Origin: an uncultured Planctomycetia bacterium | GTDB taxonomy: Bacteria > Omnitrophota > Gorgyraeia > 2-02-FULL-51-18 | DNA length: 64,000 bases | NCBI GenBank assembly: GCA_964373505.1 | Contig: CAYJVC010000001.1 | Span: forward strand, 41,630-105,629 | Direction: 5' to 3' | Shown: in pieces, positions 1-48,559 of the stretch | Numbering within the stretch: the stretch's first letter is position 1 | Layout of the letters: every line of letters begins with the position of its first letter | Position numbers and translations under genes: made by a program | The notes under the pieces: model-generated | The model's database searches: none | Seen by the model: only the letters and a program-made list of their open reading frames with translations | What the model was told of the DNA's origin: nothing

Positions 1-1311
1 GTCGAATGCCACAAGAAAGGGCAGCCGGTGCTCGTGGGCACGATATCGATCGAGAAATCCGAGCATTTGAGTTCGATGCTCCGAAAGGCCAATGTGCTCC
101 ACAACGTGCTGAACGCAAAATACCACGAAATGGAGGCCGAGATCATCAAACAGGCCGGCCAACCGAGTACGGTCACCATCGCGACGAACATGGCCGGACG
201 CGGCACGGACATCGTGCTGGGCCAGGGCGTGAAGGAGGCGGGAGGGCTGCACGTGGTCGGCACCGAGCGCCACGAGGCACGGCGCATTGACAACCAGTTG
301 CGCGGCCGCTCGGGCCGGCAAGGCGATCCCGGCTCTTCACGGTTTTATCTTTCGCTCGAGGATGACCTGATGCGCATTTTCGGCTCCGAGAAGATCTCGG
401 GCCTCATGCAGAAACTCGGCATGGAGGAGGGCCAGCCCATCGAGCATCCTTTCATCACGCGCGCGATTGAAACCGCGCAGAAGCGCGTTGAGGGCCGTAA
501 TTTTGAGATCCGCAAGCAGCTTCTTGAGTACGACAACGTGATGAACAAGCAGCGCGAGGTGATCTATTCGGAAAGAAAAAAGGTCCTCGAGGGCGAGAAT
601 TTGAGGGAGCACTACCTCGGCATGATCGAAGAGGTGATGGATTCGGTTTGTACCGGCCACAATCCCGATGAGGAAGGCGCATTCAAAACTCTTTCCGATA
701 GGGTGAAAAATGTATTCCCGATTTCGCTCGAAGGACTGCAGGCAGAATCGGGCGAACTCCTTGTGAACGGCCTGATCGAGCGCGCGAAGGCCGCGTATGA
801 GAACAAGGAGAAAGAAATAGGCGCGGACTTCATGCGGCACCTGGAACGTATGATCCTTCTCGACGTGGTGGACTCCAAATGGAAAGAACACCTGCGCAGC
901 ATGGACAATTTGAGGGAAGGGATAGGCTTGCGCGCTTACGGCCAGAAGGACCCCCTCGTCGAATATAAACGCGAGGCATTCGAGGCGTTCCAGGCGATGA
1001 TAGCCATTATTAAGGAGGACGCCTTGGGGTTCATTTTCAGGGTCCAACCGGTGCCCGGTGAAACGGTTCGGGAGCTTCCGGCCGAACGCGTGGCGCCTTT
1101 GCAGTTTTTGCATCCCGAGGCGGCCTCGGCCATGAATCAAAGGCCGCAGGCACCACTCATGCCTTCCGAGCTCTTAGAGGCCGAGGAAGGATCGGTTCCG
1201 TCCGACGGCGTCCGGCCCTCGCCAATGGCTCACGCGGAAAAAAAGGTGGGGCGAAACGACCCCTGTCCCTGCGGCAGCGGCAAAAAATATAAGAAGTGTC
1301 ATGGGCGATAG
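1..1311 (+). CDS. secA: Preprotein translocase SecA, C-terminal part (5' end cut by window edge)
   Basis: Frame of ORF 28..1311 is open back to base 1 ([21 protein letters not shown]...). SecA scaffold/wing region and C-terminal Zn-binding tail [14 protein letters not shown]. Confidence 0.9.
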
Positions 1312-1349
1312 GAAGAAGTACGCCTTGCTACCCATCACGGGTGTTTAAA

Positions 1350-2930
1350 ATGCCTCGTCGCTTTCGAGATATTTTTCTAATCTTGGTCTCCTCAGCTTTA
1401 CTCGCACTGCCTTATCACTTCGATGGGTTGTGGCCGCTGGCTTATGTTGCCTTCGTGCCTTATTTTTTTGCGCTTGAGCGCCAATCGTCCGGCGCCGTCT
1501 TTAAATATTCCTATTTTTTTGGTTTTCTTTTCTTCTCGTTCGTCGGTTACTGGCTCACCCATGTAAACTGGCTCGGGTTTATTCTGCTGGCCGCGTACCT
1601 GGCGCTTTATTTCGCGTTCTTCGGGCTCGCAAGCGCGCGTTTGCTCTATCCGTCCGACGAGACGGAGCGGCTCGATTCCAAAAAAACGCTCCGGGCGGTG
1701 TTCTTTGTTGCGGCGTTTTGGGTGGTCGGGGAGTACTTGAGGGGATGGCTATTGAGCGGGCTTCCCTGGGCGCTTTTGGCCTACAGCCAGTGGAAGAACC
1801 TCCTGGTGATACAGATCTCAGATATCACCGGCTGTTACGGCGTGTCCTTTTTTGTGATGAGTGTGAATCTCTTAATTTATAGAGTTTTAGGGGCCCTTGG
1901 TCCGTCCCGTGCAAGGCTCATCAAGAACGCGCTGGTTTTAATGACGGTTTTTGCCTTGGTGGTTTGTGTGTATGGAGCCGCTGTTTTGAACAGGGGGTCC
2001 GCCCCTCAGAGCGCCACGCGGAAGAAGGAGGTCCGAGTTTCCGTGCTGCAGGGCAACATTCCACAGGAGCAAAAATGGGACCGGAAGATCAAGAACATTA
2101 TTTTTGAAAAATACAAGCGGCTCATGTTCATGAGCGCGCTGGAGAAGCCGGACCTCATTGTTTGGCCTGAAACGTCATTCCCCGGTTACCTGGAGGACGA
2201 ACCCCTCTTGGCATCGCAGCTTCGCGGCGCGATCCGGCAGGCCCGCACGGACGTATTGGTCGGTACGCCGACGCTGGGGGATATGGAGAAGGGCCTTCGG
2301 TTCTACAACAGCGCGATCCTGTTCAGCCCCGACGGGGAAGAGCGAAAAAGATATGACAAAGTGCAGCTAGTGCCGTTCGGGGAGTACGTGCCGTTTGAGC
2401 CTGTGCTTGGCTTCCTCCGCCGGTTTTTCGCCATCGGTCACTTCAGTCCCGGCCGCGAAAAGACCCTCTTTGAGATTAAGACGCGCAACCAAAGTCCGAA
2501 CCCTTCGCTTAAATTCGGTGTTTTAATCTGTTACGAGGATATCTTTCCGGGCCTTGTGCGGGATTTTTGCCGCAATGGGGCGGATTTTATGATCAACATG
2601 ACCAATGACGCCTGGTTCGGAAAAACGGCTGCGCCCTATCAGCATGCGCAGGCGTCCCTTTTCCGCGCCGTGGAAAACCGCGTGCCGGTGGTCCGCGCGA
2701 CTAACACGGGCCTGTCCTGCTTCATTTCACCCGAGGGCAGGATCCTGGCCTCTGTGAAAGACAACGGAAAAGAGATCTATGTAACCGGCCATCAAGGCTA
2801 CAATCTAACCCTCCGGAAAACCATTTCCTTCTACACGCGATTCGGCGACGTTTTTATGGCTTTGATGTTCGGCTTTTGTTTCCTCGCTTACCGTCACCGT
2901 TCCCGCCAGCGCACCTATTCTGACAACTAA
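1350..2930 (+). CDS. lnt: Apolipoprotein N-acyltransferase (CN-hydrolase domain, multi-TM N-terminus)
   Basis: ORF 1296..2930. Likely ATG start at 1350 just after secA stop. Polytopic N-term plus C-N hydrolase core (VLICYEDIFP, NMTNDAWFG). Confidence 0.85.
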   Translation: MPRRFRDIFLILVSSALLALPYHFDGLWPLAYVAFVPYFFALERQSSGAVFKYSYFFGFLFFSFVGYWLTHVNWLGFILLAAYLALYFAFFGLASARLLYPSDETERLDSKKTLRAVFFVAAFWVVGEYLRGWLLSGLPWALLAYSQWKNLLVIQISDITGCYGVSFFVMSVNLLIYRVLGALGPSRARLIKNALVLMTVFALVVCVYGAAVLNRGSAPQSATRKKEVRVSVLQGNIPQEQKWDRKIKNIIFEKYKRLMFMSALEKPDLIVWPETSFPGYLEDEPLLASQLRGAIRQARTDVLVGTPTLGDMEKGLRFYNSAILFSPDGEERKRYDKVQLVPFGEYVPFEPVLGFLRRFFAIGHFSPGREKTLFEIKTRNQSPNPSLKFGVLICYEDIFPGLVRDFCRNGADFMINMTNDAWFGKTAAPYQHAQASLFRAVENRVPVVRATNTGLSCFISPEGRILASVKDNGKEIYVTGHQGYNLTLRKTISFYTRFGDVFMALMFGFCFLAYRHRSRQRTYSDN

Positions 2931-2955
2931 CTTTTGTTGTGGGGTGTCGAAGTCT

Positions 2956-2984
2956 TTGACAGCAATTCACCGTGCCTATATAAT
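2956..2984 (+). promoter_or_regulatory. Consensus sigma70-type promoter TTGACA-N17-TATAAT upstream of lysS leader element
   Basis: ttgaca(2956-2961), 17-nt spacer, tataat(2979-2984) in an AT-rich 100-nt gap after lnt. Confidence 0.5.
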
Positions 2985-3024
2985 AAAGCAAACTATTTTA
3001 TAAGTTTACGGAAATAAATAGGTT

Positions 3025-3140
3025 ATGACCCCACCCCCTCATTTTGAGGCGGACTGTTTTTGGGGTTTTTTGAGTCGTATTTGATTCGCCTCGACGCGCT
3101 TTGCGCCTCGGCGCGTAGCGCAAATGAGGGGGTGGGGTGA
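3025..3140 (+). repeat. Structured intergenic element copy E1: arms CCCCACCCCCTCATTT / AAATGAGGGGGTGGGG, right arm contains lysS GTG start
   Basis: 16-bp perfect inverted repeat (3029-3044 vs 3122-3137) flanking ~77 nt of GC hairpins. ATGACCCC at left, GGGGTGA at right. Confidence 0.8.
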
Positions 3141-4600
3141 CAGAACCAAACGATCTTATTAGCGAACGCCGGAAGAAGCTTGAGGCGATCAAGTCCATGG
3201 GGCTGGAGCCTTTCGGAGGCAAGTTCCATAAGCCGCACCTCATCGCATCGGTGGTTGAAGGCTACGAGGAGAGTAAAAAGGTGAGCGTCGCGGGGCGCCT
3301 ATCTTCGATCCGCCTCATGGGCAAAACCGCATTCTGCGACCTAAAGGATGAAAGCGGCCGTATCCAGCTTTACATCAAGCGGGAACTTCTGGGGGAACAG
3401 GGGTTGAAACTTTTTGAACGGCTGGATCTGGGCGATATTGTCGGCGCGGAAGGTGCGCTTTTTAAAACCAAGACCGGCGAGATCTCGATCCACGTCGACA
3501 AACTGACTCTGCTGGCCAAGAGCCTGAGGCCCATGCCTGAAAAATGGCACGGACTTAAGGACGTCGAACAACGGTACCGCCAGCGTTACCTCGACCTCGC
3601 ATCAAATGACACGACCAAAGAGATCTTCAAGAAGCGTTCTTTCGTGATCCGCTCGATCCGCAGGATGTTGGACGAGAAGGGCTATTTGGAGGTGGAAACG
3701 CCCATGATGCATCCGATCCCCGGAGGTGCCGCCGGCAAGCCCTTTAAAACACACCACGAGGCGCTGAACATGACCCTCTATTTACGGGTGGCGCCCGAAC
3801 TTTACCTTAAAAAACTGCTCGTCGGCGGCTTTGACAAAGTGTACGAGATCAACAAAAGTTTCCGGAATGAAGGGATCTCCACGCGCCACAACCCCGAATT
3901 CACGATGCTGGAGGTGTACACCGCGTATGACGATGTGAATGACGTGATGCATTTGACCGAGGAGCTCCTCAAGGGCGCGGCGCTCAGCACGCTCGGTGCC
4001 TTGACCGTCCCCTGGGGTGAGGGGACCCTGGACCTTTCGAAGTGGCCGCGCGTGTCGTTCGCCGACCTCATGAAGAAGAATTTTGACATCAACCCGGAAG
4101 ACCCTGAGCGGGTCTGGATCGAGAGGATGAAAAAAAAAGGCGTGAAACTGGAATCTCAGGACGGCCACGAGCTTTCGCGCACGCAGCTTATCAATATCGT
4201 CGGCGAGATCCTGGAGCCCGGCACGCATCTTTCGCGGAACGGTCACCCTGTTTTTGTGACGGATTATTTCACGGAGCTTTGCCCGCTCGCCAAGAAGAAC
4301 AGGCGGAATCCCCATCTGAGCGACCGTTTTGAGCTTTATATCGGCGGCATGGAGATCGCGAACGGTTACTCGGAGCTTAACGACCCTCTCGAGCAGCGGG
4401 AACGGCTGCTGCGGGAACTGGAGGAGAAGGGCAAACAAAGTACGTTCGAGAGCCTCGATGAGGATTTTTTAAGGGCGCTTGAGCATGGCATGCCTCCGGC
4501 CGGCGGACTCGGCATTGGGATCGACCGGCTCGTGATGATTTTGACCAATCAGCCGTCGATCCGCGAGGTGATCCTTTTTCCTCAGATGAGGAAAGAATAA
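3137..4600 (+). CDS. lysS: Lysyl-tRNA synthetase (class II)
   Basis: 487 aa. N-term ...RRKKLEAIKSMGLEPFGGKF, class II motifs (FRNEG, GGLGIGIDRLVM). GTG start inside element E1. Confidence 0.95.
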   Translation: MTEPNDLISERRKKLEAIKSMGLEPFGGKFHKPHLIASVVEGYEESKKVSVAGRLSSIRLMGKTAFCDLKDESGRIQLYIKRELLGEQGLKLFERLDLGDIVGAEGALFKTKTGEISIHVDKLTLLAKSLRPMPEKWHGLKDVEQRYRQRYLDLASNDTTKEIFKKRSFVIRSIRRMLDEKGYLEVETPMMHPIPGGAAGKPFKTHHEALNMTLYLRVAPELYLKKLLVGGFDKVYEINKSFRNEGISTRHNPEFTMLEVYTAYDDVNDVMHLTEELLKGAALSTLGALTVPWGEGTLDLSKWPRVSFADLMKKNFDINPEDPERVWIERMKKKGVKLESQDGHELSRTQLINIVGEILEPGTHLSRNGHPVFVTDYFTELCPLAKKNRRNPHLSDRFELYIGGMEIANGYSELNDPLEQRERLLRELEEKGKQSTFESLDEDFLRALEHGMPPAGGLGIGIDRLVMILTNQPSIREVILFPQMRKE

Positions 4601-7421: not shown

Positions 7422-7945
7422 GCTGCGACGAATGCGGAAAAAATAAGGCGACCGTTCATCTCACCGAGATTATCAACGATCAGATCACGAAGCTGAACCT
7501 CTGTGAGACCTGCGCGAAGGAGAAAGGTTCGGACGTGGAACAGCATTTCGGAATCGGAGACCTTTTGGCCGCGCTCTCCGACACGCACACAGCCTCGGCG
7601 ACCGCGGAAGCGCCGGCGATGAAAGGCCGATGCGCGCAGTGCGGGCTGACGTATGATGATTTTAAGAAAATCGGCCGCCTCGGCTGCAGTGACTGCTACA
7701 ACGCTTTCAAACCGAGCCTTGCGCCGCTTCTTAAGAAAATTCACGGATCCAATCAGCATTTGGGCAAGTCCCTTAGCCCGCAGGCGCTCAGTGAACTCAA
7801 GGTTTCTTCCAAGCATCACGATGAGCTTGAGCTCGTGAAGCAGGAGCTTCAAAAGGCGGTGAAGAATGAGGAGTTTGAGGAGGCGGCCGCGCTCCGCGAC
7901 AAGATCAAGTTTCTGGAAAAGAAGATAAAAGAGGGCAAGGCATGA
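7418..7945 (+). CDS. mcsA: McsA-like protein (CxxC zinc-finger pairs + UVR domain), activator of protein-arginine kinase
   Basis: CDECG, CETC, CAQCG, CSDC motifs then UVR motif EEFEEAAALRDKIKFLEKK. Directly upstream of mcsB. Confidence 0.7.
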   Translation: MSCDECGKNKATVHLTEIINDQITKLNLCETCAKEKGSDVEQHFGIGDLLAALSDTHTASATAEAPAMKGRCAQCGLTYDDFKKIGRLGCSDCYNAFKPSLAPLLKKIHGSNQHLGKSLSPQALSELKVSSKHHDELELVKQELQKAVKNEEFEEAAALRDKIKFLEKKIKEGKA

Positions 7946-8058
7946 CCCCATCCCCTCCTTTTTTATTTAGAGAATTGATGAATCCGCCCGCGGCGGGTTC
8001 ATGCGCCGTTTCCCGGATGATGAGTATTGAAGCGGCGCAAAAGGAGGGGATGGGGTGA
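7942..8058 (+). repeat. Structured intergenic element copy E2: arms CCCCATCCCCTCCTTTT / AAAAGGAGGGGATGGGG, bridges mcsA stop (ATGA) and mcsB GTG start (GTGA)
   Basis: 17-bp perfect inverted repeat (7946-7962 vs 8039-8055). Inner hairpins GCGCCG..CGGCGC, ATGAA..TTCAT. An element-spanning 38-codon ORF runs from ATG 7942 to TGA 8056. Confidence 0.8.
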
Positions 8059-15491: not shown

Positions 15492-16496
15492 ATGACGTTC
15501 GGATTCATCAGAGTATTGTTCGTTTTGCTGAGCGCCGTTGTCGGGTTTCAGCTTGGAAGCGCGTTCGGCGGAGTGGCAAGCGCGTCGGGCCTCTTGGGGG
15601 CCGGCGCCGGGTTTGTGACGGCCGTTTTCGTGATCATTTTCGAGCACGCGGTAGGCAAGGTGTCGCTTCGCGGCCTCTCGGCCGCCGTCTTCGGATTGTT
15701 GTTCGCTCTCATCGTATCACAGTTCCTGTCGGGCGCTATCGATCTCATTCCGGACATGAATCCCGGCCTTGCGTCGGCCTTCAAACTTGTCATAGTGCTC
15801 GTACTCTCGTACCTGGGCATGGTATTCGCAATGCGTGGCCGCGATGAGTTCAATTTGATCATTCCGTATGTCAAGTTCGACCGGCAGGATCAGAAAGACA
15901 CGATCCTCATCTTGGATACGAGCGTGATCATTGACGGGCGGGTTCTGGATATTTGCCAGACAAAATTCCTGGAAGGCCGTTTCGTGATCCCGCGGTTCGT
16001 TCTAAAAGAGCTGCAGCAGGTGGCGGATTCGCAGGATGGTCTCAAGCGCGTGCGCGGGCGCCGGGGGCTCGATATCCTGAATAAGCTCCGTAAAAACACG
16101 CACATAAGCGTGAAGATCCATGAGGAGGATTTCCCGGAGCTTGGCTCCGTCGATGAAAAGCTCGTGAAGCTCGCGAAGGTGCTCAGCGCGAAGATTTTGA
16201 CTAACGATTTTAATTTGAATAAGGTTGCGGAGTTTCAGGGCGTCACGATCCTCAATATCAACGAACTGGCGAACGCCCTGCGGCCTGTGGTGCTGCCCGG
16301 CGAGGCGCTTGAGGTGCACCTTGTGAAAGAAGGCAAGGAACACAATCAGGCGATCGCGTACCTGGAGGACGGAACGATGGTCGTGGTCGATAATGCCAAG
16401 CGTCATTTAGGCTCCGACCAGAAAGTGACCGTAACCTCGGTCCTTCAAACAGCCGCGGGCCGCATGATCTTCGGAAAGCTGGATCCGGAGAAGTGA
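15492..16496 (+). CDS. PIN- and TRAM-domain membrane protein (YacL-like)
   Basis: N-terminal TM helices, PIN core ILDTSVIIDGRVLD, C-terminal TRAM-like beta barrel. Conserved position upstream of ispD-ispF as in Bacillus yacL. Confidence 0.7.
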   Translation: MTFGFIRVLFVLLSAVVGFQLGSAFGGVASASGLLGAGAGFVTAVFVIIFEHAVGKVSLRGLSAAVFGLLFALIVSQFLSGAIDLIPDMNPGLASAFKLVIVLVLSYLGMVFAMRGRDEFNLIIPYVKFDRQDQKDTILILDTSVIIDGRVLDICQTKFLEGRFVIPRFVLKELQQVADSQDGLKRVRGRRGLDILNKLRKNTHISVKIHEEDFPELGSVDEKLVKLAKVLSAKILTNDFNLNKVAEFQGVTILNINELANALRPVVLPGEALEVHLVKEGKEHNQAIAYLEDGTMVVVDNAKRHLGSDQKVTVTSVLQTAAGRMIFGKLDPEK

Positions 16497-16510
16497 AGTG
16501 AGGAGGTGAG

Positions 16511-17203
16511 GTGAGGGTTGCGGCGATCGTTCCTGCGGCCGGGTCGGGAAAGCGGCTTGGGTCGTCCGTCCCGAAGGCCTTCATCCGAGTGCGAGGAAAA
16601 CCACTCTTCATCCACACCCTTCGTGGTCTGGACCGGGCGTACGGATTCCGGGAATTCATTCTCGTAGTCCGGAAAAACAAGATGCGTGAGGCCGAGCGCC
16701 TGCTTCGGCAGTTTCGCATCAAAAATTTTAAGGTCGTCCCGGGCGGCGCCACACGCGCGGAATCCGTGTGGAAGGGGCTTCAGGCAGTCTCGAAAAGCGC
16801 GGGATGGGTGCTCGTGCATGATGCTGCCAGGCCCCTCGTCTCTCGGGGGCTTGTGAGGCGTCTTCTTCAAAAAGCAAAGGAGTCGGGCGCCGTGATCTGC
16901 GGATTGCCCTCGGAGGCGACGCTCAAGCGCGTAGACACTCGTAACCGAACCGTCCGGAATACGGAAGACCGGAACAGCTTGTACCTGGCGCAGACGCCGC
17001 AGGTTTTCAGAAAAAATTTGATAGCCGGGCGTTACGAGGCGCTCGGCAAGAAAGCTTACGGATGTACGGACGAGGCGGCGCTTTTTGACGGCACTTCGGT
17101 GAGCGTGAAAATGGTTGCCGGAGACCCGGCCAACATCAAGCTCACGGTCCCGGAAGATCTGAAACTTTTGGAGTTTTACCTTGCGAGTCGGCATCGGGTA
17201 TGA
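16511..17203 (+). CDS. ispD: 2-C-methyl-D-erythritol 4-phosphate cytidylyltransferase
   Basis: AAIVPAAGSGKRLG N-terminal motif, 230 aa. Confidence 0.9.
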   Translation: MRVAAIVPAAGSGKRLGSSVPKAFIRVRGKPLFIHTLRGLDRAYGFREFILVVRKNKMREAERLLRQFRIKNFKVVPGGATRAESVWKGLQAVSKSAGWVLVHDAARPLVSRGLVRRLLQKAKESGAVICGLPSEATLKRVDTRNRTVRNTEDRNSLYLAQTPQVFRKNLIAGRYEALGKKAYGCTDEAALFDGTSVSVKMVAGDPANIKLTVPEDLKLLEFYLASRHRV

Positions 17204-20697: not shown

Positions 20698-21559
20698 GGA
20701 ACTCAAAGATCAGCCGAACGTCATCCCGGCGATCAAGGCTGCGCTCGAAAAGGGGCGTTTGGGGCACGCGCTTTTGTTTCAGGGGGGTTCCGATTCGGCC
20801 TCCCGCGAAACAGCGATGGAGCTTGCAAAAGCGCTTTTCTGCGAGGATCTCAAAGAATGGGAGTCTTGTGACGCGTGCCGCCCCTGCCGGCTGGTGGTCC
20901 GCAACGCGCATCCGGATTATCTCAAGGTGTCCCCGCTCGAAGGTTCCGAGGTCGTGAAGATCGGGCAGATCCGGGAGCTTGTGGCGACAGCCAATCTCAA
21001 GCCTTTTGAAGCGCGCTCCAAGCTCTTTGTGATCGATCCGGCCGAGGCGATGAATGAAGAGGCGCAGAGCGCATTCCTTAAGACGCTCGAGGAGCCTCCG
21101 GGGTCCACGCGCTTTGTTCTCATCACCCGGAATCCGGCGGGACTTCTCGAAACCATTCGCTCGCGCTGCCGGCTATTTTCTTTTGCGCCTTCGCGTGAAG
21201 CAGCCTCGAAAGACCCGGAGCTTGAGGGCCTGAAGCGGGAGGCGACCGAGATTTTTCTATCACGAGGCGAGCGGCGTACGCCGGGTCTTCCGGATCTGGC
21301 CAAGTTTGAGCGGGAAGAGGTTCAGGAGCTTTTAGACACGCTCATGGAGTATTTCCGGGATTGTCTCCTCATCCGGGTGGGGGCGGACGCGATGCTTTCG
21401 GGGGAGGAAGATCTTAGCCGCAAACGCAGGGTTGCCGGCGAACGAAGCGAGACCGAGCTTCAAGACTTGATCCAATTTTTTTCAGAAATAAAGGAAAAAG
21501 TTTCCGAAAAGGTGAACTTGAAGCTTGTGGCGTCGGCGCTTTGGGAGGCGGCACCGTGA
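20687..21559 (+). CDS. holB: DNA polymerase III delta-prime subunit
   Basis: AAA+ clamp-loader fold with degenerate Walker A, Zn module CxxC..C..C, SRC-like arginine finger motif SRCRLFSF. Confidence 0.75.
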   Translation: MSFRELKDQPNVIPAIKAALEKGRLGHALLFQGGSDSASRETAMELAKALFCEDLKEWESCDACRPCRLVVRNAHPDYLKVSPLEGSEVVKIGQIRELVATANLKPFEARSKLFVIDPAEAMNEEAQSAFLKTLEEPPGSTRFVLITRNPAGLLETIRSRCRLFSFAPSREAASKDPELEGLKREATEIFLSRGERRTPGLPDLAKFEREEVQELLDTLMEYFRDCLLIRVGADAMLSGEEDLSRKRRVAGERSETELQDLIQFFSEIKEKVSEKVNLKLVASALWEAAP

Positions 21560-21628
21560 CCCCGCCCCCTGATCGTAACGGTCGCGAAGCGATCGGTCGC
21601 CATGGCGACCGATCAGGGGGTGGGGTGA
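21556..21628 (+). repeat. Structured intergenic element copy E3: arms CCCCGCCCCCTGATCG / CGATCAGGGGGTGGGG (one G-U wobble), between holB stop (GTGA) and metG GTG start
   Basis: Arms 21560-21575 vs 21610-21625. Inner perfect 24-bp palindrome GATCGGTCGCCATGGCGACCGATC shares CGATC with right arm. Element length 69 nt keeps left GTG in frame with metG. Confidence 0.8.
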
Positions 21629-28197: not shown

Positions 28198-29335
28198 GCG
28201 CGTGAATTCCCCCCTTTGTACGGCGTGGGTCGAAGTCGACCTTGGCGCGCTACGGAATAATTTGAGACTTATCCGGAGGCGCATTCGGAAGGGCCGGACG
28301 CAAATACTCGCGGTGGTGAAAGCGGACGCCTATGGGCACGGAATGAAGTCCGTCGCAAAGGCGCTGGCCCGGGAGGGTGTGGGTTTTTTTGGTGTCGCCA
28401 ATATTGACGAGGCCATGGAGCTGCGGAGCGTCTGCCCCAGGCAAAAAATCCTCGTGCTCGGGAGCTTTCACGCGAGTCAACTGCTTTTTTTCATTCGCCA
28501 CCGCATCCTGCCGACTGTTTCTTCGGTCGGGGACATCCGGACCTTGGCGCGCACGTTAAGATCTCGAACGTCCCCGTTTCCGGTCCACGTGAAGATCGAC
28601 ACGGGCATGGGCCGGTTGGGGGTTTGGCACGAGGAGATCGAGCCTTTTTTTAAAATTTTAAAGCAGAATCCGAACGTGGGGGTCGAAGGTATTTACACGC
28701 ATTTTTCAAGCGCCGACAAAAAGGATAAAAGATTCACCCGGAAACAGCTCACGGACTTCGGCCGCGCGGTCCAAAAAATAAAGACGCTTGGCTTCCACCC
28801 CCGGTATATTCATGCAGCCAACAGCATGGGCCTCCTCCGCTTTACGAACGCGCATCTTAATCTTGTGAGGCCCGGGATCGTTTTGTATGGTGTTCAGCCC
28901 GATCGGCGCCTGGCGAAACTAGCGGGACTTAAACCCGTTATGTCGCTTAAAACACGGGTGTGCTTCCTTAAGGATGTGAAAAAGGGCTCGAGCATCAGTT
29001 ACGGCGCTTCGTATGTCACGCCCCGCGCGACGCGGATCGCGACGCTTCCCATCGGTTACAGCCATGGTTACCGTGTCGGATTTTCCAACAAGGCGTTTGT
29101 GCTGATCCGTGGCCGGAGGTATCCGGTGGTGGGGCGGGTGACGATGGACCAGACACTTGTGAACGTGGGCCCCGGGGCACGCGTCCGTCGTTGGGAGACG
29201 GTGACCCTTATCGGGCGTGATAACGGAGCGGTTATTTCAGCCGAAGATCTTGCGACGTTGGCGGGAAGCATCCCCTACGAAGTTGTTTGTTCCATCCACA
29301 GCCGCATCCCGCGGCTCTACAAGGGTGTTCGCTAG
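28187..29335 (+). CDS. alr: Alanine racemase
   Basis: PLP-Lys motif VVKADAYGHG, C-terminal beta domain. Confidence 0.9.
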   Translation: MAGKRVNSPLCTAWVEVDLGALRNNLRLIRRRIRKGRTQILAVVKADAYGHGMKSVAKALAREGVGFFGVANIDEAMELRSVCPRQKILVLGSFHASQLLFFIRHRILPTVSSVGDIRTLARTLRSRTSPFPVHVKIDTGMGRLGVWHEEIEPFFKILKQNPNVGVEGIYTHFSSADKKDKRFTRKQLTDFGRAVQKIKTLGFHPRYIHAANSMGLLRFTNAHLNLVRPGIVLYGVQPDRRLAKLAGLKPVMSLKTRVCFLKDVKKGSSISYGASYVTPRATRIATLPIGYSHGYRVGFSNKAFVLIRGRRYPVVGRVTMDQTLVNVGPGARVRRWETVTLIGRDNGAVISAEDLATLAGSIPYEVVCSIHSRIPRLYKGVR

Positions 29336-29405
29336 CCCCATCCCCTGTTTCCTGCGATCGCAAAGCGATCGGTCCACAGAGCGGAGGAAACAGGGGATGG
29401 GGTGG
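29333..29405 (+). repeat. Structured intergenic element copy E4: arms CCCCATCCCCTGTTTCC / GGAAACAGGGGATGGGG, followed by T-rich tract (terminator-like) after alr
   Basis: 17-bp perfect inverted repeat (29336-29352 vs 29384-29400). Inner TGCGATCGCA palindrome. Shares 12-mer AAGCGATCGGTC with E3. GTG in right arm not followed by a plausible gene. Confidence 0.8.
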
Positions 29406-29414
29406 TTCTTTTCT

Positions 29415-29443
29415 TTGGACAGCACTTTATTTCATGTTATAAT
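29415..29443 (+). promoter_or_regulatory. Near-consensus sigma70-type promoter TTGGAC-N17-TATAAT for the ilvB operon, in an AT-rich 130-nt leader
   Basis: ttggac(29415-29420), 17 nt, tataat(29438-29443). 11-bp palindrome ATTTACTAAAT at 29450-29460 near predicted TSS. T8 run at ~29492-29500. Confidence 0.5.
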
Positions 29444-43452: not shown

Positions 43453-44429
43453 AAAAGTTTATAGGGAATTTCCTTATGTCGGTTTACAAAGCGGGCCTGC
43501 TTTTCAGCCAGCGCAGCTACCGTTCTTCGCCCTCCCGTGTGAAAAGGGTGAATGCGCGCGTGATCAGCGTCGGCAACATCACCTGGGGCGGCACCGGCAA
43601 AACGCCTTTGGTGGCGATGCTGTCTCGAGCGCTTCTGGAGAGCGGCAATAAAGTCGCGATCTTGACGCGCGGTTACGGGAAAGATGAGGTGGAAGAGCTT
43701 CGGAAGAAACTGCCCGACGTTCCGATCGTTGTGGGCCGCGATCGCATTAAGACCGCGCAGGAAGCGATCCACAAGCACGGCGCTGGTTTTTTGATCTTGG
43801 ACGACGGTTTTCAGCATATTCGTCTTCACCGCGACGTGGACGTCGTGAATATCAATTCCACCCTGCCATTCGGCCCGGGAGGGTTGATCCCGGTAGGCAC
43901 TTTAAGAGAACCGATCGAGCATCTGGCACGCGGGCATATCTTTGTGCTTGCCAAAAGCGATATCGGCTCCAAAAATGTACACTGGATCCGTCAGAGGCTG
44001 TTGGCGGTCAAACCCGATGCCGTGATCTTTGAGGCCAGGCACCGCCCCGTCGGGCTTTGGGATTTTAAAAGGAACCGGGAGGTCCCGCTCCAGGAGCTCC
44101 AGGGCAAAAAAGTCGCCGCGATCTCCGGAATAGGCGATCCCTATTCCTTTGAAAAGACGCTCGAAAATTTGGGGGCCAATATCGTGTTTGCCGCGCGCTT
44201 CGATGACCACCACGCGTACACGGAATCGGAACTCAAAGATTTTGCCGCGCGTTGCCGGGAGCTCGACTTGAGAGAAGTGATCACCACCGAGAAGGATTTT
44301 TTCAGGCTTCAAGCCCTTCTTACGAGAAAAAAGAGCGAGAACGACCCGCCGCTTAATTTCAACGTGTTACGGATAGAATTTGAGATGAACGATGAAGAAG
44401 ATTTTATTAGAAGATGCATTAATCCTTAG
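43449..44429 (+). CDS. lpxK: Tetraacyldisaccharide 4'-kinase
   Basis: P-loop GNITWGGTGKTP, 326 aa. Confidence 0.85.
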   Translation: MKKFIGNFLMSVYKAGLLFSQRSYRSSPSRVKRVNARVISVGNITWGGTGKTPLVAMLSRALLESGNKVAILTRGYGKDEVEELRKKLPDVPIVVGRDRIKTAQEAIHKHGAGFLILDDGFQHIRLHRDVDVVNINSTLPFGPGGLIPVGTLREPIEHLARGHIFVLAKSDIGSKNVHWIRQRLLAVKPDAVIFEARHRPVGLWDFKRNREVPLQELQGKKVAAISGIGDPYSFEKTLENLGANIVFAARFDDHHAYTESELKDFAARCRELDLREVITTEKDFFRLQALLTRKKSENDPPLNFNVLRIEFEMNDEEDFIRRCINP

Positions 44430-46359
44430 CGCGGCCAAAGTCGCGCGGTGGATCGTTCACCGGCTTCCACTGAAGCAGTCCTTGTTTCTGGCCCGCGTGA
44501 TCGGCCGAGTGATCTATGCTTTCAACAAACGTAAGCGAGTGGCCTATCAGAATTTAAGGGCGGCGTTCGCGGGCGAGAAGTCCCCGTCCGAGCTTAAGGC
44601 AATCTCAAAAAAGTCGTTTGAGAATCTCGTGATGGCGATCGCGGAGTTCCTGCGCGTGCCGGACATGGACCGCGCCTATTTGGACAAGCACGTGCGCTTC
44701 ATGGGACTTGAGAAATTCCGAAGCCGCTTGCAAGAGAAAAAGGGTCTTATTTTTCTGGCTGCGCACTTTGGGAACTGGGAGCTATTGAGTGTCGCGGGCA
44801 GCATCCTGGGATTTCCAATGGTCGCGCTTGCGCGGGTCCAAAAACATCCGCGATCCGACGCGTTCCTAAATTCCTTAAGGACATGCAAAGGCGCCTCCGT
44901 GATCCACAAGGGCATGCCGCTGCGGGAGATCCTGCGGTCGCTTAAAGACGGCAAGATTGTCGGGATCTTAAGCGACCAGGACGGCGGGCGGAGCGGCACT
45001 TTCGTGAAGTTCTTTAGTCGCTGGTCGTCGACACCGGGAGGCGTGTCGACATTTGCGATGCGCACGGGCTCGCCTATTTTCCCGGTGTTCATGTTCCGCG
45101 AAGGGATCACCGAGCATCGTGTGGAGGTAGAAGGGCCTCTCCAGATGCCGGCCGAGAACTTGAGTCATGAAAAATGCGAGAAAATGGTCCTGCAGCAATT
45201 TGCGGACCTGCTTGAAAAAAAGATCCGGAAAAGCCCTGAGCAATGGCTTTGGGCGCATCGCCGCTGGAAGTCGACTCCGGACCGCTCGGTGATCCTCTTA
45301 AGCGACAAAAAGCAAGGACACCTGAACCAGTCGTTGGCCGTGTTAGAGGCGATCAGGAAGGAGCGTGCCACAAAAGGCTGCGGGCCGGAACATACGCGCT
45401 CCCAAATCCTCGAGGTCCAATACCAAAACCCACGGCGCGAGAAGCTGTTCAGGGCCCTGGCCATTTTATTTTCCGGGCATATTCCCTTTAAATCAAAGAT
45501 ACTCCGGTGGGTGTTGTCGGACCCTACCTACGCCGCGGTCACCCGCACTTATGCGGACATCGTGATCTCCTGCGGCTCGTCACTCTCCGCGCTGAATCTA
45601 CTCGTTAAAGATCTGAACGTTGCCAAATCCGTCGTGATCATGAAACCTCCTTTTTCAACGAAACGTTTTGATCTGGTGATCGCTCCCGGGCATGACCGCT
45701 TAAAGCCGTCCGGCAATGTGTTTGTCACCCGCACAAGTCCTTCACTCGTTTCGGAAGGATACCTGAAAGAGCGGGCCGAATATTTTGCTAAGAGCCTGGA
45801 GGAGCTCAACGGTTCCAAGCGCATTGGTCTTCTCGTAGGCGGCGACACAGAGCGCCTGAAATTTTCAAAAGAGTATTTGGAAAAATTCTTGGAACGTCTG
45901 GGCCGTTTCGGCGCCGAGTCCGGCGCTCTCATCTTAGCGACTTCCTCGAGGCGCACGCCGGCCTGGGCGGCCCAGCTCATGAAAGAATTGTTCAAGGACC
46001 GTAAGCGATGTCCGCTTCTTGTGATCGCGAACGAATCCAATGCCGACGGGGTTGTCGGCGGCATTTTGGGCTTATCCGATGCGGTCGTGGTTTCCGGCGA
46101 GTCGATATCCATGGTGTCGGAAGCGGTCTCTTCGGGGAAACCCGTACTCGTATTCATGCCTTCGGACCGGACGCGTGTAAAGCCTAAACACGAGGACTTT
46201 TTGAGACGCCTGGAGAAGGAAAGATTGATCGTGCGGGCCGGCCCGGACAATATTTCGGGGGCCTTGGAGAACTCCCTGAGCCGACCGGAGCGCGCGACCC
46301 CGGTGTTCTCGGGGGATCTGGATGTGTTGAGTGAAGCGGTGAAAAAGGTGGCGGGATGA
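44392..46359 (+). CDS. Bi-domain protein: lipid A late acyltransferase (LpxL/HtrB family) fused to an ELM1/DUF1022-like domain
   Basis: N-terminal ~290 aa LPLAT acyltransferase (HFGNWE catalytic HX4D-like), C-terminal ~350 aa ELM1-like putative nucleotide-sugar transferase (GHLNQS..., VIMKPP). Confidence 0.65.
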   Translation: MKKILLEDALILSAAKVARWIVHRLPLKQSLFLARVIGRVIYAFNKRKRVAYQNLRAAFAGEKSPSELKAISKKSFENLVMAIAEFLRVPDMDRAYLDKHVRFMGLEKFRSRLQEKKGLIFLAAHFGNWELLSVAGSILGFPMVALARVQKHPRSDAFLNSLRTCKGASVIHKGMPLREILRSLKDGKIVGILSDQDGGRSGTFVKFFSRWSSTPGGVSTFAMRTGSPIFPVFMFREGITEHRVEVEGPLQMPAENLSHEKCEKMVLQQFADLLEKKIRKSPEQWLWAHRRWKSTPDRSVILLSDKKQGHLNQSLAVLEAIRKERATKGCGPEHTRSQILEVQYQNPRREKLFRALAILFSGHIPFKSKILRWVLSDPTYAAVTRTYADIVISCGSSLSALNLLVKDLNVAKSVVIMKPPFSTKRFDLVIAPGHDRLKPSGNVFVTRTSPSLVSEGYLKERAEYFAKSLEELNGSKRIGLLVGGDTERLKFSKEYLEKFLERLGRFGAESGALILATSSRRTPAWAAQLMKELFKDRKRCPLLVIANESNADGVVGGILGLSDAVVVSGESISMVSEAVSSGKPVLVFMPSDRTRVKPKHEDFLRRLEKERLIVRAGPDNISGALENSLSRPERATPVFSGDLDVLSEAVKKVAG

Positions 46360-46442
46360 CCCCATCCTCTCCTTTGAAATTTTCAATTTTAGCGCGGTGC
46401 GCTGAGGCGACTTTGTCGCCTCGAAAGGAGGGGATGGGGTGA
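46356..46442 (+). repeat. Structured intergenic element copy E5: arms CCCCATCCTCTCCTTTG / CGAAAGGAGGGGATGGGG (one U-G wobble), bridges acyltransferase stop (ATGA) and GT4-GT9 GTG start (GTGA)
   Basis: Arms 46360-46376 vs 46422-46439. Inner perfect hairpins AGCGCggtGCGCT and GAGGCGACtttGTCGCCTC. An element-spanning 28-codon ORF runs from ATG 46356 to TGA 46440. Confidence 0.8.
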
Positions 46443-48559
46443 ACGTCCTTCAGATCCTCCCGGAGCTCAAAACAGGCGGCGTTGAGCGCGGTACCGTCGA
46501 CTTGGCAAAATACTTGAAACAAGAAGGGCACAAATCGGTCGTGGTGTCCGCGGGCGGCCCTTTGGTGGGCGATCTGACGTCGGCCGGCGTGCTGCATTAC
46601 ACGCTTCCAGTCCATAAGAAAAATCCGTTCGCGATATTCCGCTCCGTTCGGACACTCGCCAAGATCGTCAAGCGCGAGGACATCGACATCCTGCACGCAC
46701 GAAGCCGCGCCCCGGCGCTCGTGGCTTATTTCGTAAGCCGCAAGACGCATGTGCCATTCGTCACAACCTGCCACGGCTTTTATAGCAAACATTTCCTGAG
46801 CCGTGTGATGGGATGGGGAAAGCTCGTGATCGTGGCCAGCCATGTGATCGGCAGACGTATGCGGGACGATTTCGGCGTGCCGCACGCCAAGATACGCCTG
46901 ATCCACCGCGGCGTGAACTTGGAGGAGTTTAAAAGCAAGCTGGAGCACGAGCCTGTCAAGAAGAAGGAGATCATCGTGGGCATGATCGGGAGGCTCACAC
47001 CGATCAAAGGGCACCCGCTTTTCTTGAAGGCCATGGCGCGCGTGAGCCGAGTCATACCCCACCTTAAGATCCGGATCATCGGCGAAGCGCCCAAGCTTCA
47101 GTACAAGGAAGAGCTGATGATGCTGACGCGGAGGCTCGGCTTGTCACACGCGGTTGAGTTTTTAGGCACGCGGTACGACATCCCGGAGCTTTTGCCGGGC
47201 CTGGCCATTCTCGTGATGCCCTCCGTGGGGGAAGAGGCGTTCGGCCGCGTGGTGATCGAAGCCGGCGCCTGCGGCGTGCCCGTGGTGGCGACCCGCATCG
47301 GAGGGCTTGTCGACATTATTGAAGACGGAAAAGACGGCTTGCTTGTGCCGACGGATGATCCCAAGATCCTCGCGGATGCGATCATTCGCATTTTGAAAGA
47401 TCCGGCGCTTGGCCAAACGCTCGCTCTGGCACTTCATGAAAAGGTGCGGAAGGAATTCAGCCTTGAGCTTATGTTCCGGAAAACATTGGAGGTTTATCGG
47501 GAGGCGCTGTCAAGAAAGAGGATCCTCGTGATCAAATTGAGCGCCGTCGGCGACGTGATCTTAAGTATTCCTTCGATCCGCGCGTTGCGGGAAAAGTTTG
47601 CCGACGCCTGGATATCGGCTCTCGTGGGCCGGAAATCAAGGAAGATCCTCCGTAATTGCCCGTATCTGAATGACGTGATCGTTTATGAGGAGGCAAGCGG
47701 GAAAAATCACTTCCTGAATATTTTGCAGACCGCGCGGCTTCTCGCTAAAGAAGACTTCGATATCGTCGTGGACCTGCAGAATAACCGGATGAGCCACCTG
47801 TTGGCCTTTTTGTCCGGCGCCCGCGTGCGCGTCGGACACAACAACCGCAAATGGGCTTTTTTGTTGAACCGGAAGCCGGCCGATGCCTCCAGCGCCGGCG
47901 TTTCACCGCTTGAGCATCAATTCCGAGTCCTCAAACTGTTGGGCCTAGAGGGCTTTGACAAGCGGCTTGAGCTTTGGGCGGACAACGATGAGGAAGCGGG
48001 AATGAAAAATTTCCTCGCGTCCCAATGGGTTTCGCCAAGCCAGACGCTCGTCGGGATCAACCCAGGTTCGTCGCTGCGCTGGCCCACGAAACAATGGGGC
48101 GTCGAGAACTTCGCACGACTCTGCGATGAGCTGGCAAAAAAAAATATACGAGTGGTGATCACCGGCACCGAAGAGGATGCACCGCTCGCGACCGAACTCT
48201 TTCGCCTCACAAGAAATAAACCGATCAATGCGGTCGGCCGAACCACGATCACGGAGCTTGTGGCGCTCATCCGCCGCTGCCAGACGTTCGTAAGCTCGGA
48301 TTCGGCGCCGATGCATATTGCGTCAAGCGTGGACGTGCCGCTCGTGGCGATTTTCGGGCCCACAGACCCCAAGCGGCACTTGGCGCCTCCTTCGCACTAC
48401 CAGGTCTTTTGGAAAGAAGTCCATTGCAGCCCCTGTTATCTGCGGAGTTGTCCGATAGGGCTTATTTGCATGAAGAAGATCGGCGTGCAGGAAGTGCTGG
48501 ACGCGGTCTGTCATCTGGCGGAGGCGCAGCGACCCAAGTCCGCCAAAACCCCTCTATGA
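46439..48559 (+). CDS. Bifunctional LPS-core glycosyltransferase: N-terminal GT4 domain fused to C-terminal GT9 (heptosyltransferase-like) domain
   Basis: GT4 N-half (VNVLQILPELKTGGVERGTVDLA..., EAFGRVVIEAGACGVPVVAT). GT9 C-half from ~aa 350 (RILVIKLSAVGDVILSIPS..., DSAPMHIASS). Confidence 0.75.
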   Translation: MNVLQILPELKTGGVERGTVDLAKYLKQEGHKSVVVSAGGPLVGDLTSAGVLHYTLPVHKKNPFAIFRSVRTLAKIVKREDIDILHARSRAPALVAYFVSRKTHVPFVTTCHGFYSKHFLSRVMGWGKLVIVASHVIGRRMRDDFGVPHAKIRLIHRGVNLEEFKSKLEHEPVKKKEIIVGMIGRLTPIKGHPLFLKAMARVSRVIPHLKIRIIGEAPKLQYKEELMMLTRRLGLSHAVEFLGTRYDIPELLPGLAILVMPSVGEEAFGRVVIEAGACGVPVVATRIGGLVDIIEDGKDGLLVPTDDPKILADAIIRILKDPALGQTLALALHEKVRKEFSLELMFRKTLEVYREALSRKRILVIKLSAVGDVILSIPSIRALREKFADAWISALVGRKSRKILRNCPYLNDVIVYEEASGKNHFLNILQTARLLAKEDFDIVVDLQNNRMSHLLAFLSGARVRVGHNNRKWAFLLNRKPADASSAGVSPLEHQFRVLKLLGLEGFDKRLELWADNDEEAGMKNFLASQWVSPSQTLVGINPGSSLRWPTKQWGVENFARLCDELAKKNIRVVITGTEEDAPLATELFRLTRNKPINAVGRTTITELVALIRRCQTFVSSDSAPMHIASSVDVPLVAIFGPTDPKRHLAPPSHYQVFWKEVHCSPCYLRSCPIGLICMKKIGVQEVLDAVCHLAEAQRPKSAKTPL

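Follow-up and report, generated by a model that had tools for sequence, protein, structure and literature searches.

A small palindromic repeat at the lysS start codon of an uncultured Omnitrophota bacterium resembles a translational switch and is probably a mobile element

In the window analysed here, a 64-kb stretch of DNA from an uncultured Omnitrophota bacterium, the lysyl-tRNA synthetase gene lysS is preceded by a leader in which a short open reading frame (ORF) runs into one arm of a long hairpin, the other arm holding the Shine-Dalgarno (SD) sequence and GTG start codon of lysS. Did this arrangement evolve to control lysS? A sequence-only reading of the locus had proposed a cis-acting switch, in which an upstream ORF (uORF) encoding Pro-Pro-Pro, with EF-P-dependent stalling, could tune the exposure of the lysS SD and GTG. 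In our analysis, the leader element, E1, probably belongs to a family of small (66-110 nt) palindromic mobile elements of Omnitrophica that are non-coding and MITE-like, and was inserted exactly at the lysS start codon. Its hairpin and uORF are a built-in, self-compensating property of the element, not lysS-specific regulation.

The promoter was as first described. The exact TTGACA-N17-TATAAT matches the consensus at 12/12 positions, and is the sole such match in the first 20 kb of the window, where other sites reach at most 10/12. It lies downstream of an lnt-like ORF (LNT_N and CN_hydrolase domains) ending at 2930. Across the orthologous lnt-lysS spacers, the -10 box is invariant (5/5) and the -35 TTGACA is present in 4/5, the remaining spacer being poorly conserved. 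These comparisons support a promoter belonging to lysS itself and conserved at this gene in related Omnitrophica genomes, so that E1 lies in the lysS 5' leader. Judging from the position of the -10 box, transcription would start near 2991. The closest other homologues of LysS are 73-80% identical, those with a named source coming almost all from Omnitrophica. The start at 3137 gives MTEPNDLI, in agreement with the homologue N-termini MSETSDLL and MTESNDIL. The features of the locus are the following:

2956..2984, + strand: lysS promoter, with -35 TTGACA (2956-2961), a 17-nt spacer and -10 TATAAT (2979-2984), from the 12/12 match and its conservation in orthologous spacers
2991..3024, + strand: ancestral short, A/U-rich lysS leader with the weak SD AGG (3020-3022), near-identical to the L119 leader
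3025..3027, + strand: relic of the ancestral lysS start codon, ATG, now opening a 19-codon ORF, from the empty-site comparison
3025..3084, + strand: relic ORF, MTPPPHFEADCFWGFLSRI*, with stop TGA at 3082-3084, truncated relative to the family norm
3026..3028, + strand: left copy of a duplicated TGA, resembling a target-site duplication; TGA is present at both ends of E1, and relatives have a single ATGA or GTGA
3029..3137, + strand: E1 (copy c1), 109 nt, with left arm 3029-3044, interior 3045-3121 and right arm 3122-3137
3126..3132, + strand: SD-like GAGGGGG contributed by the right arm, as read from the sequence
3137..3139, + strand: new GTG start codon of lysS; its first G is the final base of E1 and its TG comes from the right TGA copy (3138-3140)
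3137..4600, + strand: lysS, class II lysyl-tRNA synthetase (Pfam tRNA-synt_2 and tRNA_anti-codon)

E1 is bounded by an inverted repeat (3028-3044 and 3122-3138, 17 nt each, 100% complementary, 77 nt apart), and its interior comprises two internal stem-loop domains, with three hairpin loops by ViennaRNA count. This structure is far beyond chance. Indeed, the arm motif occurs nine times in the window against 0.76 expected, and the predicted fold of the lysS leader reaches -72.3 kcal/mol, with z-scores of -6.2 (170 nt) and -7.4 (136 nt) and no equally stable fold among 200 shuffles. For the closing stem alone, about -34 kcal/mol is predicted. This predicted stem takes in the SD-like GAGGGGG as well as the initial G of the lysS GTG, in line with their proposed sequestration. 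The ORF from ATG 3025, with its upstream AGG, its peptide and its stop, was likewise recovered, and the Pro-Pro-Pro is encoded by the CCCCACCCCCT variant of the arm, as had been noted. Such a geometry is what a dedicated switch would display: the start of the uORF precedes the left arm by 3 nt, Pro-Pro-Pro is encoded on that arm, SD and GTG lie on the other, and a ribosome paused at Pro-Pro-Pro would keep the stem open. Against a dedicated switch, the Rfam search retrieved no T-box, lysine riboswitch or other family: positions 2850-3250 gave only noise (E>2), and no family reached its gathering score anywhere in the window.

The lysS loci of relatives were more informative. Four orthologous loci (LysS 76-80% identical), with the synteny secA-lnt-lysS-macB..., all lack E1; the -10 box is kept in all of them and the -35 box in three, and promoter and leader continue directly into lysS (…AGGttATGAgcgaa…). 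In locus L119, the leader (aaataaatAGGttATGAgcgaa) is near-identical to that of the window and adjoins lysS directly, giving the empty site aggttATGAgcgaa where the window has aggttATGA[E1]TGAcagaa. The lysS site before insertion was ...AGGttATGAcagaa.... The insertion left a TGA on both sides of the element and the old promoter, leader, SD and ATG intact upstream, and the 3' end of the element (....AGGGGGTGGGG + TGA) supplies, in frame with lysS, a GTG preceded at 4-10 nt by an SD-like run of G. The absence of E1 from lysS in the relatives argues that the uORF begins with the original lysS start codon, which the insertion joined to the arm of the element. To judge from this comparison, ATG 3025 and about 40 nt upstream of it are the ancestral ribosome-binding site (RBS) and start, and probably still the working initiation site. 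A genuine ancestral RBS in front of the uORF would also serve a dedicated switch; the absence of E1 from lysS in 4/4 relatives is, however, hard to reconcile with one. Thus, the leader with its uORF and hairpin is present as described, whereas its evolution as a switch of an aminoacyl-tRNA synthetase gene is not borne out.

Nor is the element confined to lysS. Four more copies were found in the window, at unrelated genes:

7946..8055, + strand: copy c2, 110 nt, between mcsA (stop in ATGA 7942-7945) and mcsB (GTG 8055)
21560..21625, + strand: copy c4, 66 nt, between holB (DNA polymerase III delta') and metG
29336..29402, + strand: copy c5, 67 nt, directly 3' of the alr TAG stop
46360..46439, + strand: copy c3, 80 nt, between an LpxL-ELM1 fusion gene (stop in ATGA 46356-46359) and a GT4-GT9 glycosyltransferase gene (GTG 46439)

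Together with about 21 distinct metagenomic copies with a 16-bp stem, these and E1 constitute the family. The presence of the same element at mcsB, metG and a lipopolysaccharide glycosyltransferase gene, after alr, and at some 21 unrelated loci argues against an element dedicated to lysS. Copies c2 and c3 carry GGAGG 7 nt 5' of their GTG, and relay ORFs of 38 codons (c2, overlapping both mcsA and mcsB) and 28 codons (c3). Copy c4 is in frame with metG from a relic GTG at 21556, which is preceded by GGGAGG. The right flank of c5 is TGG followed by a T-rich tract, with no downstream gene adjoining.

Orthologous empty sites were also found for two of these copies: at mcsA/mcsB in L122 (gtgtcATGAaagtt, with an ATGA junction), and between the LpxL-ELM1 and glycosyltransferase genes in L206 (GTGA) and L207 (ATGA). 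There are thus three independent orthologous empty sites, each with a single NTGA, and about 90 kb of relatives' DNA contained no copy, against five in the 64-kb window. One ancient orthologous insertion shared by c3 and L195 was considered and rejected, as L206 and L207, relatives with 81-82% identity, carry the empty site; independent insertions at the same junction appear more likely.

Among the left flanks of window and metagenomic copies, 14 were ATGA, 4 GTGA and 3 TTGA, with single ATGG and GTGG flanks accompanied by TGG on the right and no CTGA. The direct flanks are TGA/TGA, or TGG/TGG in two copies, with the exceptions of c5 (TAG/TGG), L184 (TAA/TGG) and L151 (ACA/TGA). The pattern used for the metagenome scan left the left flank free and required TGR on the right; only the five window copies, four of which sit on NTGA, are unbiased as to flanks. 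On high-GC contigs, ORF-based context was ambiguous, and for L158 and L163 the genes served are probably those of the opposite strand.

The family consensus, CCCCRYCCYCT + 5 nt ... 5 nt + AGGGGRYGGGG, forms a 16-bp closing stem around two or three small hairpins. The helix was found in 24/24 aligned copies, with 11 conserved and 5 covarying pairs and a sharp end at 16 bp. Covariation was pronounced: 64 cells were changed on both sides, compared with 27.7 in shuffles, and none of 500 shuffles reached 64. The stems contain six sense-strand G·U pairs against one A·C pair. Predicted energies are about -30 to -35 kcal/mol for the closing stems and -44 to -77 kcal/mol for whole-element folds. The interiors of the five window copies could not be aligned, only the arms and the hairpin architecture being common to them, which is unusual for a MITE burst. 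Three metagenomic copies (L124, L129 and L144) are near-identical, interior included, and form one subfamily.

No transposase or autonomous partner with matching ends, and no IS-sized unit (300-4000 bp) between such arms, was found in the 1.37 Mb searched. The right arm alone (GAGGGGRTGGGGTGA) gave 118 chance matches in genome contigs from unrelated phyla and no family member. A flank-free scan of viral contigs returned 15 generic G/C hairpins, none with TGA direct flanks and none belonging to the family. In the literature, we found no description of an Omnitrophica repeat or of a start-codon MITE.

A further regularity inside the element concerns its reading frame. In 22 of the 23 typical copies, the frame of the relic start is open through the whole element, compared with 8/23 and 11/23 for the other two sense frames. 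Element length modulo 3 is 0 in 12 typical copies, 2 in 10, and 1 only in c1. This relic frame has one of two outcomes, a stop at the TGA that overlaps the new GTG or continuation in frame downstream. In c2, c3 and eight metagenomic copies, the ORF ends at the TGA of GTGA, overlapping the flanking stop and start; in the 12 copies of length 0 modulo 3 (c4 and 11 others), which sit at the first codon of the downstream gene, it reads into that gene in frame. Conservation in the relay peptides is limited to their termini (TP[PS]P... and ...GGGV or ...EGMG). In 9 of the 23 typical copies, Pro-Ser-Pro or Pro-Ser-Ser stands in place of Pro-Pro-Pro; EF-P dependence is therefore not a feature of the family. 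Moreover, c1, whose ORF stops at 3084, is the single exception to the open relay and looks like a degraded member with a 1-nt frameshift. Taken with its absence from orthologues and its presence elsewhere, we regard a dedicated, EF-P-dependent lysS switch as improbable.

One additional nucleotide anywhere in 3046-3083 of c1, such as within the homopolymers T5, G4 or T6 (3057-3071), yields a 38-codon ORF reaching the TGA at 3138-3140, and the 109-nt length of c1 could be an assembly error in a homopolymer run.

How, then, would lysS be expressed from behind such a stem if E1 is an inserted mobile element? We infer that ribosomes still load at the ancestral RBS and ATG 3025, probably during transcription and ahead of synthesis of the right arm. 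Translating into the left arm, they would hold the stem open, and the open stem would expose the right-arm SD and GTG for lysS, as in translational coupling by RNA unfolding. In canonical copies, ribosomes would reach the TGA overlapping the new GTG, allowing termination-reinitiation at -4 spacing, or would enter the downstream gene in frame. In c1, barring a homopolymer assembly error, the 1-nt length difference would have cost this relay, and only the hairpin-opening part would remain. [quoted passage not shown] A 16-bp G/C-rich stem beginning 4 nt after ATG 3025 should hinder initiation there too, so the proposed opening would depend on co-transcriptional timing.

The broken relay of c1 also suits a simpler account, in which this copy is tolerated junk: lysS would be expressed at a lowered level, with translation initiating directly at GTG 3137 when the stem breathes, or from transcripts reading through from lnt, and the relic ORF would have no role. 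That c1 is the only typical copy with a broken relay ORF is what relaxed or absent selection at a promoter-proximal site would produce. However, lysS is normally essential, a stem of -34 kcal/mol would almost abolish unaided initiation, and the ancestral RBS and ATG are fully intact just upstream; we therefore find this account unlikely.

Ribosomes might also avoid the hairpin altogether. Through the duplicated TGA, every typical copy has AUGA on one side of the stem base and GUGA on the other, and initiator tRNA reads both AUG and GUG. A complex formed at the old SD and AUG might transfer to the GUG with the hairpin not unwound, much as in T4 gene 60 hopping or the pararetrovirus shunt. Such a bypass would place no selection on stop-free frames or on lengths of 0 or 2 modulo 3, yet both signals are strong, and it lacks a known bacterial precedent at initiation. 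We consider it highly improbable.

In another alternative, RNase III or a different endonuclease would cleave the closing stem, separating the arms, freeing the right-arm SD and GTG and uncoupling segments of operon mRNA, with no need for translation of the relic ORF. The stems of the family are perfect double-stranded RNA of 16-18 bp with a conserved outer sequence. The idea draws on precedent: in Neisseria, RNase III cuts mRNAs at the hairpins of Correia MITEs, and the translation of some phage mRNAs is switched on by processing with the same enzyme. However, 16 bp is short for efficient cleavage by this enzyme, and cleavage leaves both the open relic frame (22/23) and the avoidance of length 1 modulo 3 unexplained. 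This alternative, too, seems unlikely to us, and coupling through an inserted element remains our preferred explanation.

Among known systems, the closest analogues of the family are MIRUs, the Rickettsia palindromic elements (RPEs) and Neisseria REP2, with Borrelia IR-A considered alongside REP2. MIRUs are direct, often tandem repeats without long terminal inverted repeats. In the Omnitrophica family, by contrast, a single palindromic unit occupies each site, and no tandem copies of the element were found. By their description, MIRUs are short, dispersed intra-operon repeats at start codons, whose internal ORF is coupled downstream with -4 spacing and whose effect on expression is minimised (Supply et al. 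1997 as summarised in PMC12548453). Copies c2 and c3 and eight metagenomic copies show exactly this coupling, whereas the 16-bp stem, the TGA duplication, the element's own SD and GTG, and the phylum are different. RPEs are palindromic mobile elements of about 100-150 bp, tolerated in coding sequence through in-frame insertion and translation (PMC10969869), as the Omnitrophica copies of length 0 modulo 3 are read in frame into the downstream protein. RPEs, however, are scattered over many sites inside ORFs and specify a conserved peptide; the Omnitrophica elements lie at the start codon, conserve only the peptide ends and, in half of the copies, end at an overlapping stop without fusion. Neisseria REP2 lacks terminal inverted repeats and brings a promoter and an ATG with it, and descriptions of it do not mention insertion into an existing start codon with duplication of the target.

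The family also shares much with MITEs such as Correia/NEMIS and with REP/REPIN sequences, being small, non-coding, multi-copy, co-transcribed and hairpin-forming, with terminal inverted repeats. Like MITEs, it shows a short target-site duplication and empty sites in relatives, and it has no transposase gene, its longest internal ORF being 38 codons. It differs in that the interiors, unlike the hairpin architecture, are not conserved between most copies, and in its target, a start/stop junction. The REP/REPIN-RAYT system is further set apart by the element ends, TGA|CCCCRYCC... with no 5' GTAG. A cognate IS or RAYT was not found in the 1.37 Mb searched. As for the predicted mechanism, in coupling by RNA unfolding an upstream ORF covers one side of a hairpin, the downstream SD and start lie on the other side, and translating that ORF opens the hairpin (PMC12548453). 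The same overlap of an upstream ORF with an SD-sequestering hairpin is found in ermC-type attenuators, f1 gene VII-IX and rpmI-rplT. Those systems are gene-specific and conserved among orthologues, whereas the arrangement at lysS came with a mobile element and is lacking in the orthologous leaders.

E1 mimics a riboregulator of an aminoacyl-tRNA synthetase gene and is a mobile-element footprint, and annotators of uncultured phyla, like those who search them for regulatory RNAs, should expect similar look-alikes. The family would be a second example after MIRU, structurally unrelated to it, of selfish DNA that lands on start codons, rebuilds the initiation signals it disrupts, and so survives in gene-dense genomes. 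The marks it leaves are unusually clear-cut, namely three empty sites, TGA on both sides, covariation in the 16-bp stem and 22/23 open relay frames. It offers a natural test system for how ribosomes handle strong closing stems at cistron junctions, and for RNA unfolding versus termination-reinitiation as the coupling mechanism, and could inspire portable intercistronic coupling cassettes.

A bolder proposal, which we put forward as speculative and rather doubtful, is that these copies represent an undescribed class of mobile DNA integrating specifically at initiation codons (NTG|A, mostly operon ATGA overlaps), and built to be translated through, with a replacement SD and GTG and a stop-free relay frame. 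It would place a traffic-dependent hairpin gate, EF-P-dependent in the Pro-Pro-Pro subfamily, before essential genes such as lysS, metG and mcsB, and its targeting of start codons would be mechanistic, not only the outcome of selection. If true, elements that target initiation codons would form a transposon-distributed layer of translational control.

Two other identities for the folded element were considered. A tRNA-like cloverleaf, suggested by the form with a stem plus three hairpins, was rejected on account of its loops of 3-5 nt and stems of 6-8 bp. An intrinsic terminator does not fit c1, which has no U-run after the stem, and is plausible only for c5, with its T-rich tail.

The terminal sequences of E1, the element at the start of lysS, were found to recur in the window. 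Overall, five copies of one element type were observed, all on the + strand and in the sense of the genes, c1 being E1 itself.

Element copies and genes at the lysS locus and elsewhere in the window
1296-2930: lnt-like gene, an ORF with LNT_N and CN_hydrolase domains
3029-3137, + strand: c1, lysS start
3137-4600: lysS, class II lysyl-tRNA synthetase gene, with GTG 3137 as start
7946-8055, + strand: c2, mcsA-mcsB junction
21560-21625, + strand: c4, holB-metG junction
29336-29402, + strand: c5, immediately past the alr stop codon
46360-46439, + strand: c3, junction of the LpxL-ELM1 fusion gene with the GT4-GT9 glycosyltransferase gene

Four of the five copies shared the same boundary anatomy, [A/G]TGA - CCCCRYCCYCT... 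on the left and ...AGGGGRYGGGG - TGA on the right. [quoted passage not shown] An ATG or GTG is completed by the base preceding this TGA (4/5 copies), and the element's last G joins the right TG to give the downstream gene its GTG start (4/5 copies). A native junction without the element (16494-16513, TGAAGTGAGGAGGTGAGGTGA) closely resembles the right arm plus GTGA, indicating that the arm mimics the SD and GTG start context native to this genome.

Some copies showed individual features. A second aminoacyl-tRNA synthetase gene, metG, likewise begins at a copy (c4; 21556-21628), which is in frame and 66 nt long; initiation at the relic GTG 21556, preceded by GGGAGG, would extend MetRS by 23 residues (VTPPPDRNGREAIGRHGDRSGGG). 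c5 (29333-29420) lies between the TAG of alr and a TGG, followed by TGGTTCTTTTCTTTGG and then by a TATAAT-like box, which precedes the next gene (29540); its role may be that of a terminator or 3' stabiliser and not of a start-codon replacement. Around c3, region 44392-48559 contains two gene fusions, one of an LpxL-type lipid A acyltransferase with an ELM1-like domain and one of a GT4 glycosyltransferase with a GT9 heptosyltransferase. The latter is common to all named Omnitrophica homologues, and its named homologues all belong to Omnitrophica.

By its LysS homologues, the source organism belongs to Candidatus Omnitrophica; for comparison, we used contigs encoding the nearest homologues. The lysS neighbourhood was syntenic in relatives (secA-lnt-lysS-macB/ftsX-ABC-aminotransferase-mcsA-mcsB-clpC), with an lnt-lysS spacer of ~100 nt without the element. 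In contig L119, whose LysS is 80% identical, promoter and leader are the same as in the window (gaagtcTTTGACA-N17-TATAATaaaacc...aaataaatAGGttATGAgcgaaact), and the ATG of the leader is the lysS start itself; in a five-locus alignment the -10 box was invariant and TTGACA was present in four loci. The window reads ...aaataaatAGGttATGA[E1]TGAcagaacc, and taking out E1 and one TGA leaves ATG ACA GAA CCA, that is, MTEP. In contig L122, mcsA and mcsB are joined by a plain 4-nt overlap (gtgtcATGAaagtt) with no element, and the LpxL-ELM1/GT junction is empty in contigs L206 (gcgggGTGAacgtt) and L207 (acttcATGAacgtc), where the window has gcgggATGA[c3]TGAacgtc. These three independent empty sites demonstrate insertion with duplication of TGA. 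No copy was found in ~90 kb of relatives' DNA, so that the expansion of the family took place in the lineage of the window.

The sequence-only reading had described the lysS leader as a plausible cis-acting translational switch, in which translation of a PPP-containing uORF would open a hairpin over the SD and GTG and polyproline stalling (EF-P dependence) could provide tuning. The features themselves were all recovered. TTGACA (2956-2961), a 17-nt spacer and TATAAT (2979-2984) give a 12/12 match to the sigma-70 consensus, the sole such site in the first 20 kb of the window, located in the 94-nt A/T-rich gap from the stop of the lnt-like gene to ATG 3025. This ATG, with AGG upstream (3020-3022), opens the uORF MTPPPHFEADCFWGFLSRI, which ends at TGA 3082-3084. 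The inverted repeat has perfect 17-nt arms (3028-3044 and 3122-3138), the right one including GAGGGGG plus the first G of GTG 3137, from which the LysS N-terminus, MTEPNDLI, aligns with those of its homologues. The predicted fold of the leader RNA reached -72.3 kcal/mol (z = -6.2 to -7.4), a stability equalled by none of 200 shuffles, with ~ -34 kcal/mol predicted for the closing stem by itself.

The interpretation of these features held only in part. A switch specific to lysS and tuned by EF-P found no support: the arrangement is missing from all orthologous lysS leaders and occurs at unrelated genes, and PPP is exchanged among copies for PSP or PSS, according to the arm variant (A-C versus A-T) and one C-to-T change. 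The empty-site comparison identifies the uORF ATG with its weak SD as the ancestral lysS initiation site, and the PPP results from the arm CCCCACCCCCT being read in the frame of this ATG. Among known families of cis-regulatory RNA, none matched the lysS leader, and an Rfam scan of the whole 64-kb window yielded no family at gathering score; known RNAs of every kind, tRNAs, rRNAs and riboswitches included, were absent.

We then considered JGI metagenomes, scanned with a two-arm pattern whose left flank was free and whose right flank was fixed to TGR, the five window copies being the only sample without flank bias. The scan returned 80 loci, ~21 of which were distinct, true family members, the remainder being generic G/C-rich hairpins. 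Among the 26 distinct members, window copies included, left flanks were ATGA (14), GTGA (4), TTGA (3), ATGG (1) and GTGG (1), the last two with a matching TGG on the right; CTGA was never observed, and three members had atypical flanks (c5, TAG/TGG; L184, TAA/TGG; L151, ACA/TGA). The closing helix measured 16 bp in essentially all members, with 11 conserved outer pairs and five freely covarying inner pairs, and pairing broke down past its end (positions 17-18). Helix cells altered on both sides numbered 64, versus 27.7 in shuffles (0/500 reaching 64). In-stem imperfections comprised six sense-strand G·U and one A·C, a bias that, though based on a small count, may reflect selection acting on the mRNA strand. 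Interiors were unlike in sequence and, in predicted folds, almost always formed two to three abutting hairpins of 5-8 bp with 3-5-nt loops.

Host contigs ranged from 45 to 71% GC; on high-GC contigs the gene context of some copies was ambiguous, and those of L158 and L163 probably serve opposite-strand genes. Contigs OBEQ01, from one metagenomic genome, carried seven copies or more; three of these are nearly identical, indicating that the element was active recently. Contig L195 (397-479) bears a copy at the same LpxL-ELM1/GT junction as c3, its GT being ~50% identical. Since L206 and L207 (81-82% identical) are empty there, the best reading of the L195 copy is that this ATGA was hit independently; the pattern suggests a target hit repeatedly, or loss by precise excision.

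To follow a ribosome initiating at the displaced start codon, we analysed the 23 typical copies. The relic frame, read from this codon, was stop-free within the element in 22 of them, as against 8 and 11 for the other two sense frames and 11-15 for the antisense frames (P ~3e-6 that it is always among the open ones, given the number of open frames per informative copy). Element length was a multiple of three in 12 copies, whose relic start is in frame with the downstream gene and, by translation, adds ~22-28 N-terminal residues of the form MTP[PS]P...GGGV. In 10 others (length mod 3 = 2), the relic frame ends at the TGA overlapping the new GTG; stop and start are then spaced at -4, as they are in ordinary ATGA-coupled genes. 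Only c1 had a remainder of 1. Open relic frames and length classes together indicate a family filtered or selected to carry old-start ribosomes over the hairpin to the downstream gene.

c1, an atypical family member with a 1-nt frameshift, is 109 nt long (c2, 110 nt), and a stop codon closes its relic frame at 3082-3084. Insertion of one base anywhere between 3046 and 3083, an interval holding T5, G4 and T6 runs, would give a 38-codon frame ending at TGA 3138-3140; the offset and these runs point to either a frameshifted, decaying copy or a homopolymer assembly error. c1 is also the only window copy behind a promoter instead of at an upstream gene's stop codon, and its stem has no ribosome from an upstream gene to open it. 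The best-supported route to lysS expression, we infer, is the one sketched in the sequence-only reading, with another origin. Ribosomes would load at the ancestral AUG and its ribosome-binding site, both of them intact, most plausibly co-transcriptionally, since the right arm is made ~90 nt later; they would then cover the left arm, and the SD-like run and GUG of the right arm would thereby become accessible. The stem, which starts 4 nt past the AUG, should itself hinder initiation there once formed. Alternatively, the closing stem may undergo RNase III-type cleavage, ribosomes may bypass it across its base, or leaky initiation at lysS may occur unaided by upstream translation; the open-frame statistic argues that ribosomes traverse the element, family-wide.

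The element is a new palindromic, start-codon-associated, self-compensating small mobile element of the MIRU/RPE/REP2 kind. Mycobacterial MIRUs, as outlined in PMC12548453 (citing Supply et al. 1997), insert at start codons and contain an internal ORF coupled at -4, the same described logic of carrying ribosomes from the old start over the insert to the downstream gene. Copies of the in-frame class are similar to Rickettsia palindromic elements (PMC10969869), and Neisseria REP2 repeats provide a precedent for repeats bearing a ribosome-binding site and start codon (PMC3184786). A recent review of prokaryotic MITEs nowhere mentions start codons or Shine-Dalgarno sequences, and we found no description of such a start-codon element in the literature on Omnitrophica.

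Interior hairpins were ~17-18 nt each, with tri- to pentaloops, and the common element lengths of 66 and 84 nt differ by 18 nt, that is, one hairpin or six codons, which suggests modular gain and loss of hairpins keeping the reading frame. On the reverse strand of L169 (9515-9630), a 9-codon mini-ORF (MTTHNSAR and stop) has the element on its ATGA, with the next real gene following ~80 nt downstream, so the family also lands on start codons of small upstream ORFs. Moreover, the scan caught, solely through a shared G/C core, a distinct ~100-nt repeat family with conserved flanks (...ccttA CCCCGCCCCCTATG...CATAGGGGGCGGGG TGACAATTTT), present on many contigs of one metagenome (L133, L148, L160, L167, L168, L176 and L185, Ga0209345 contigs) and seen on L139, L172 and L197 as well.
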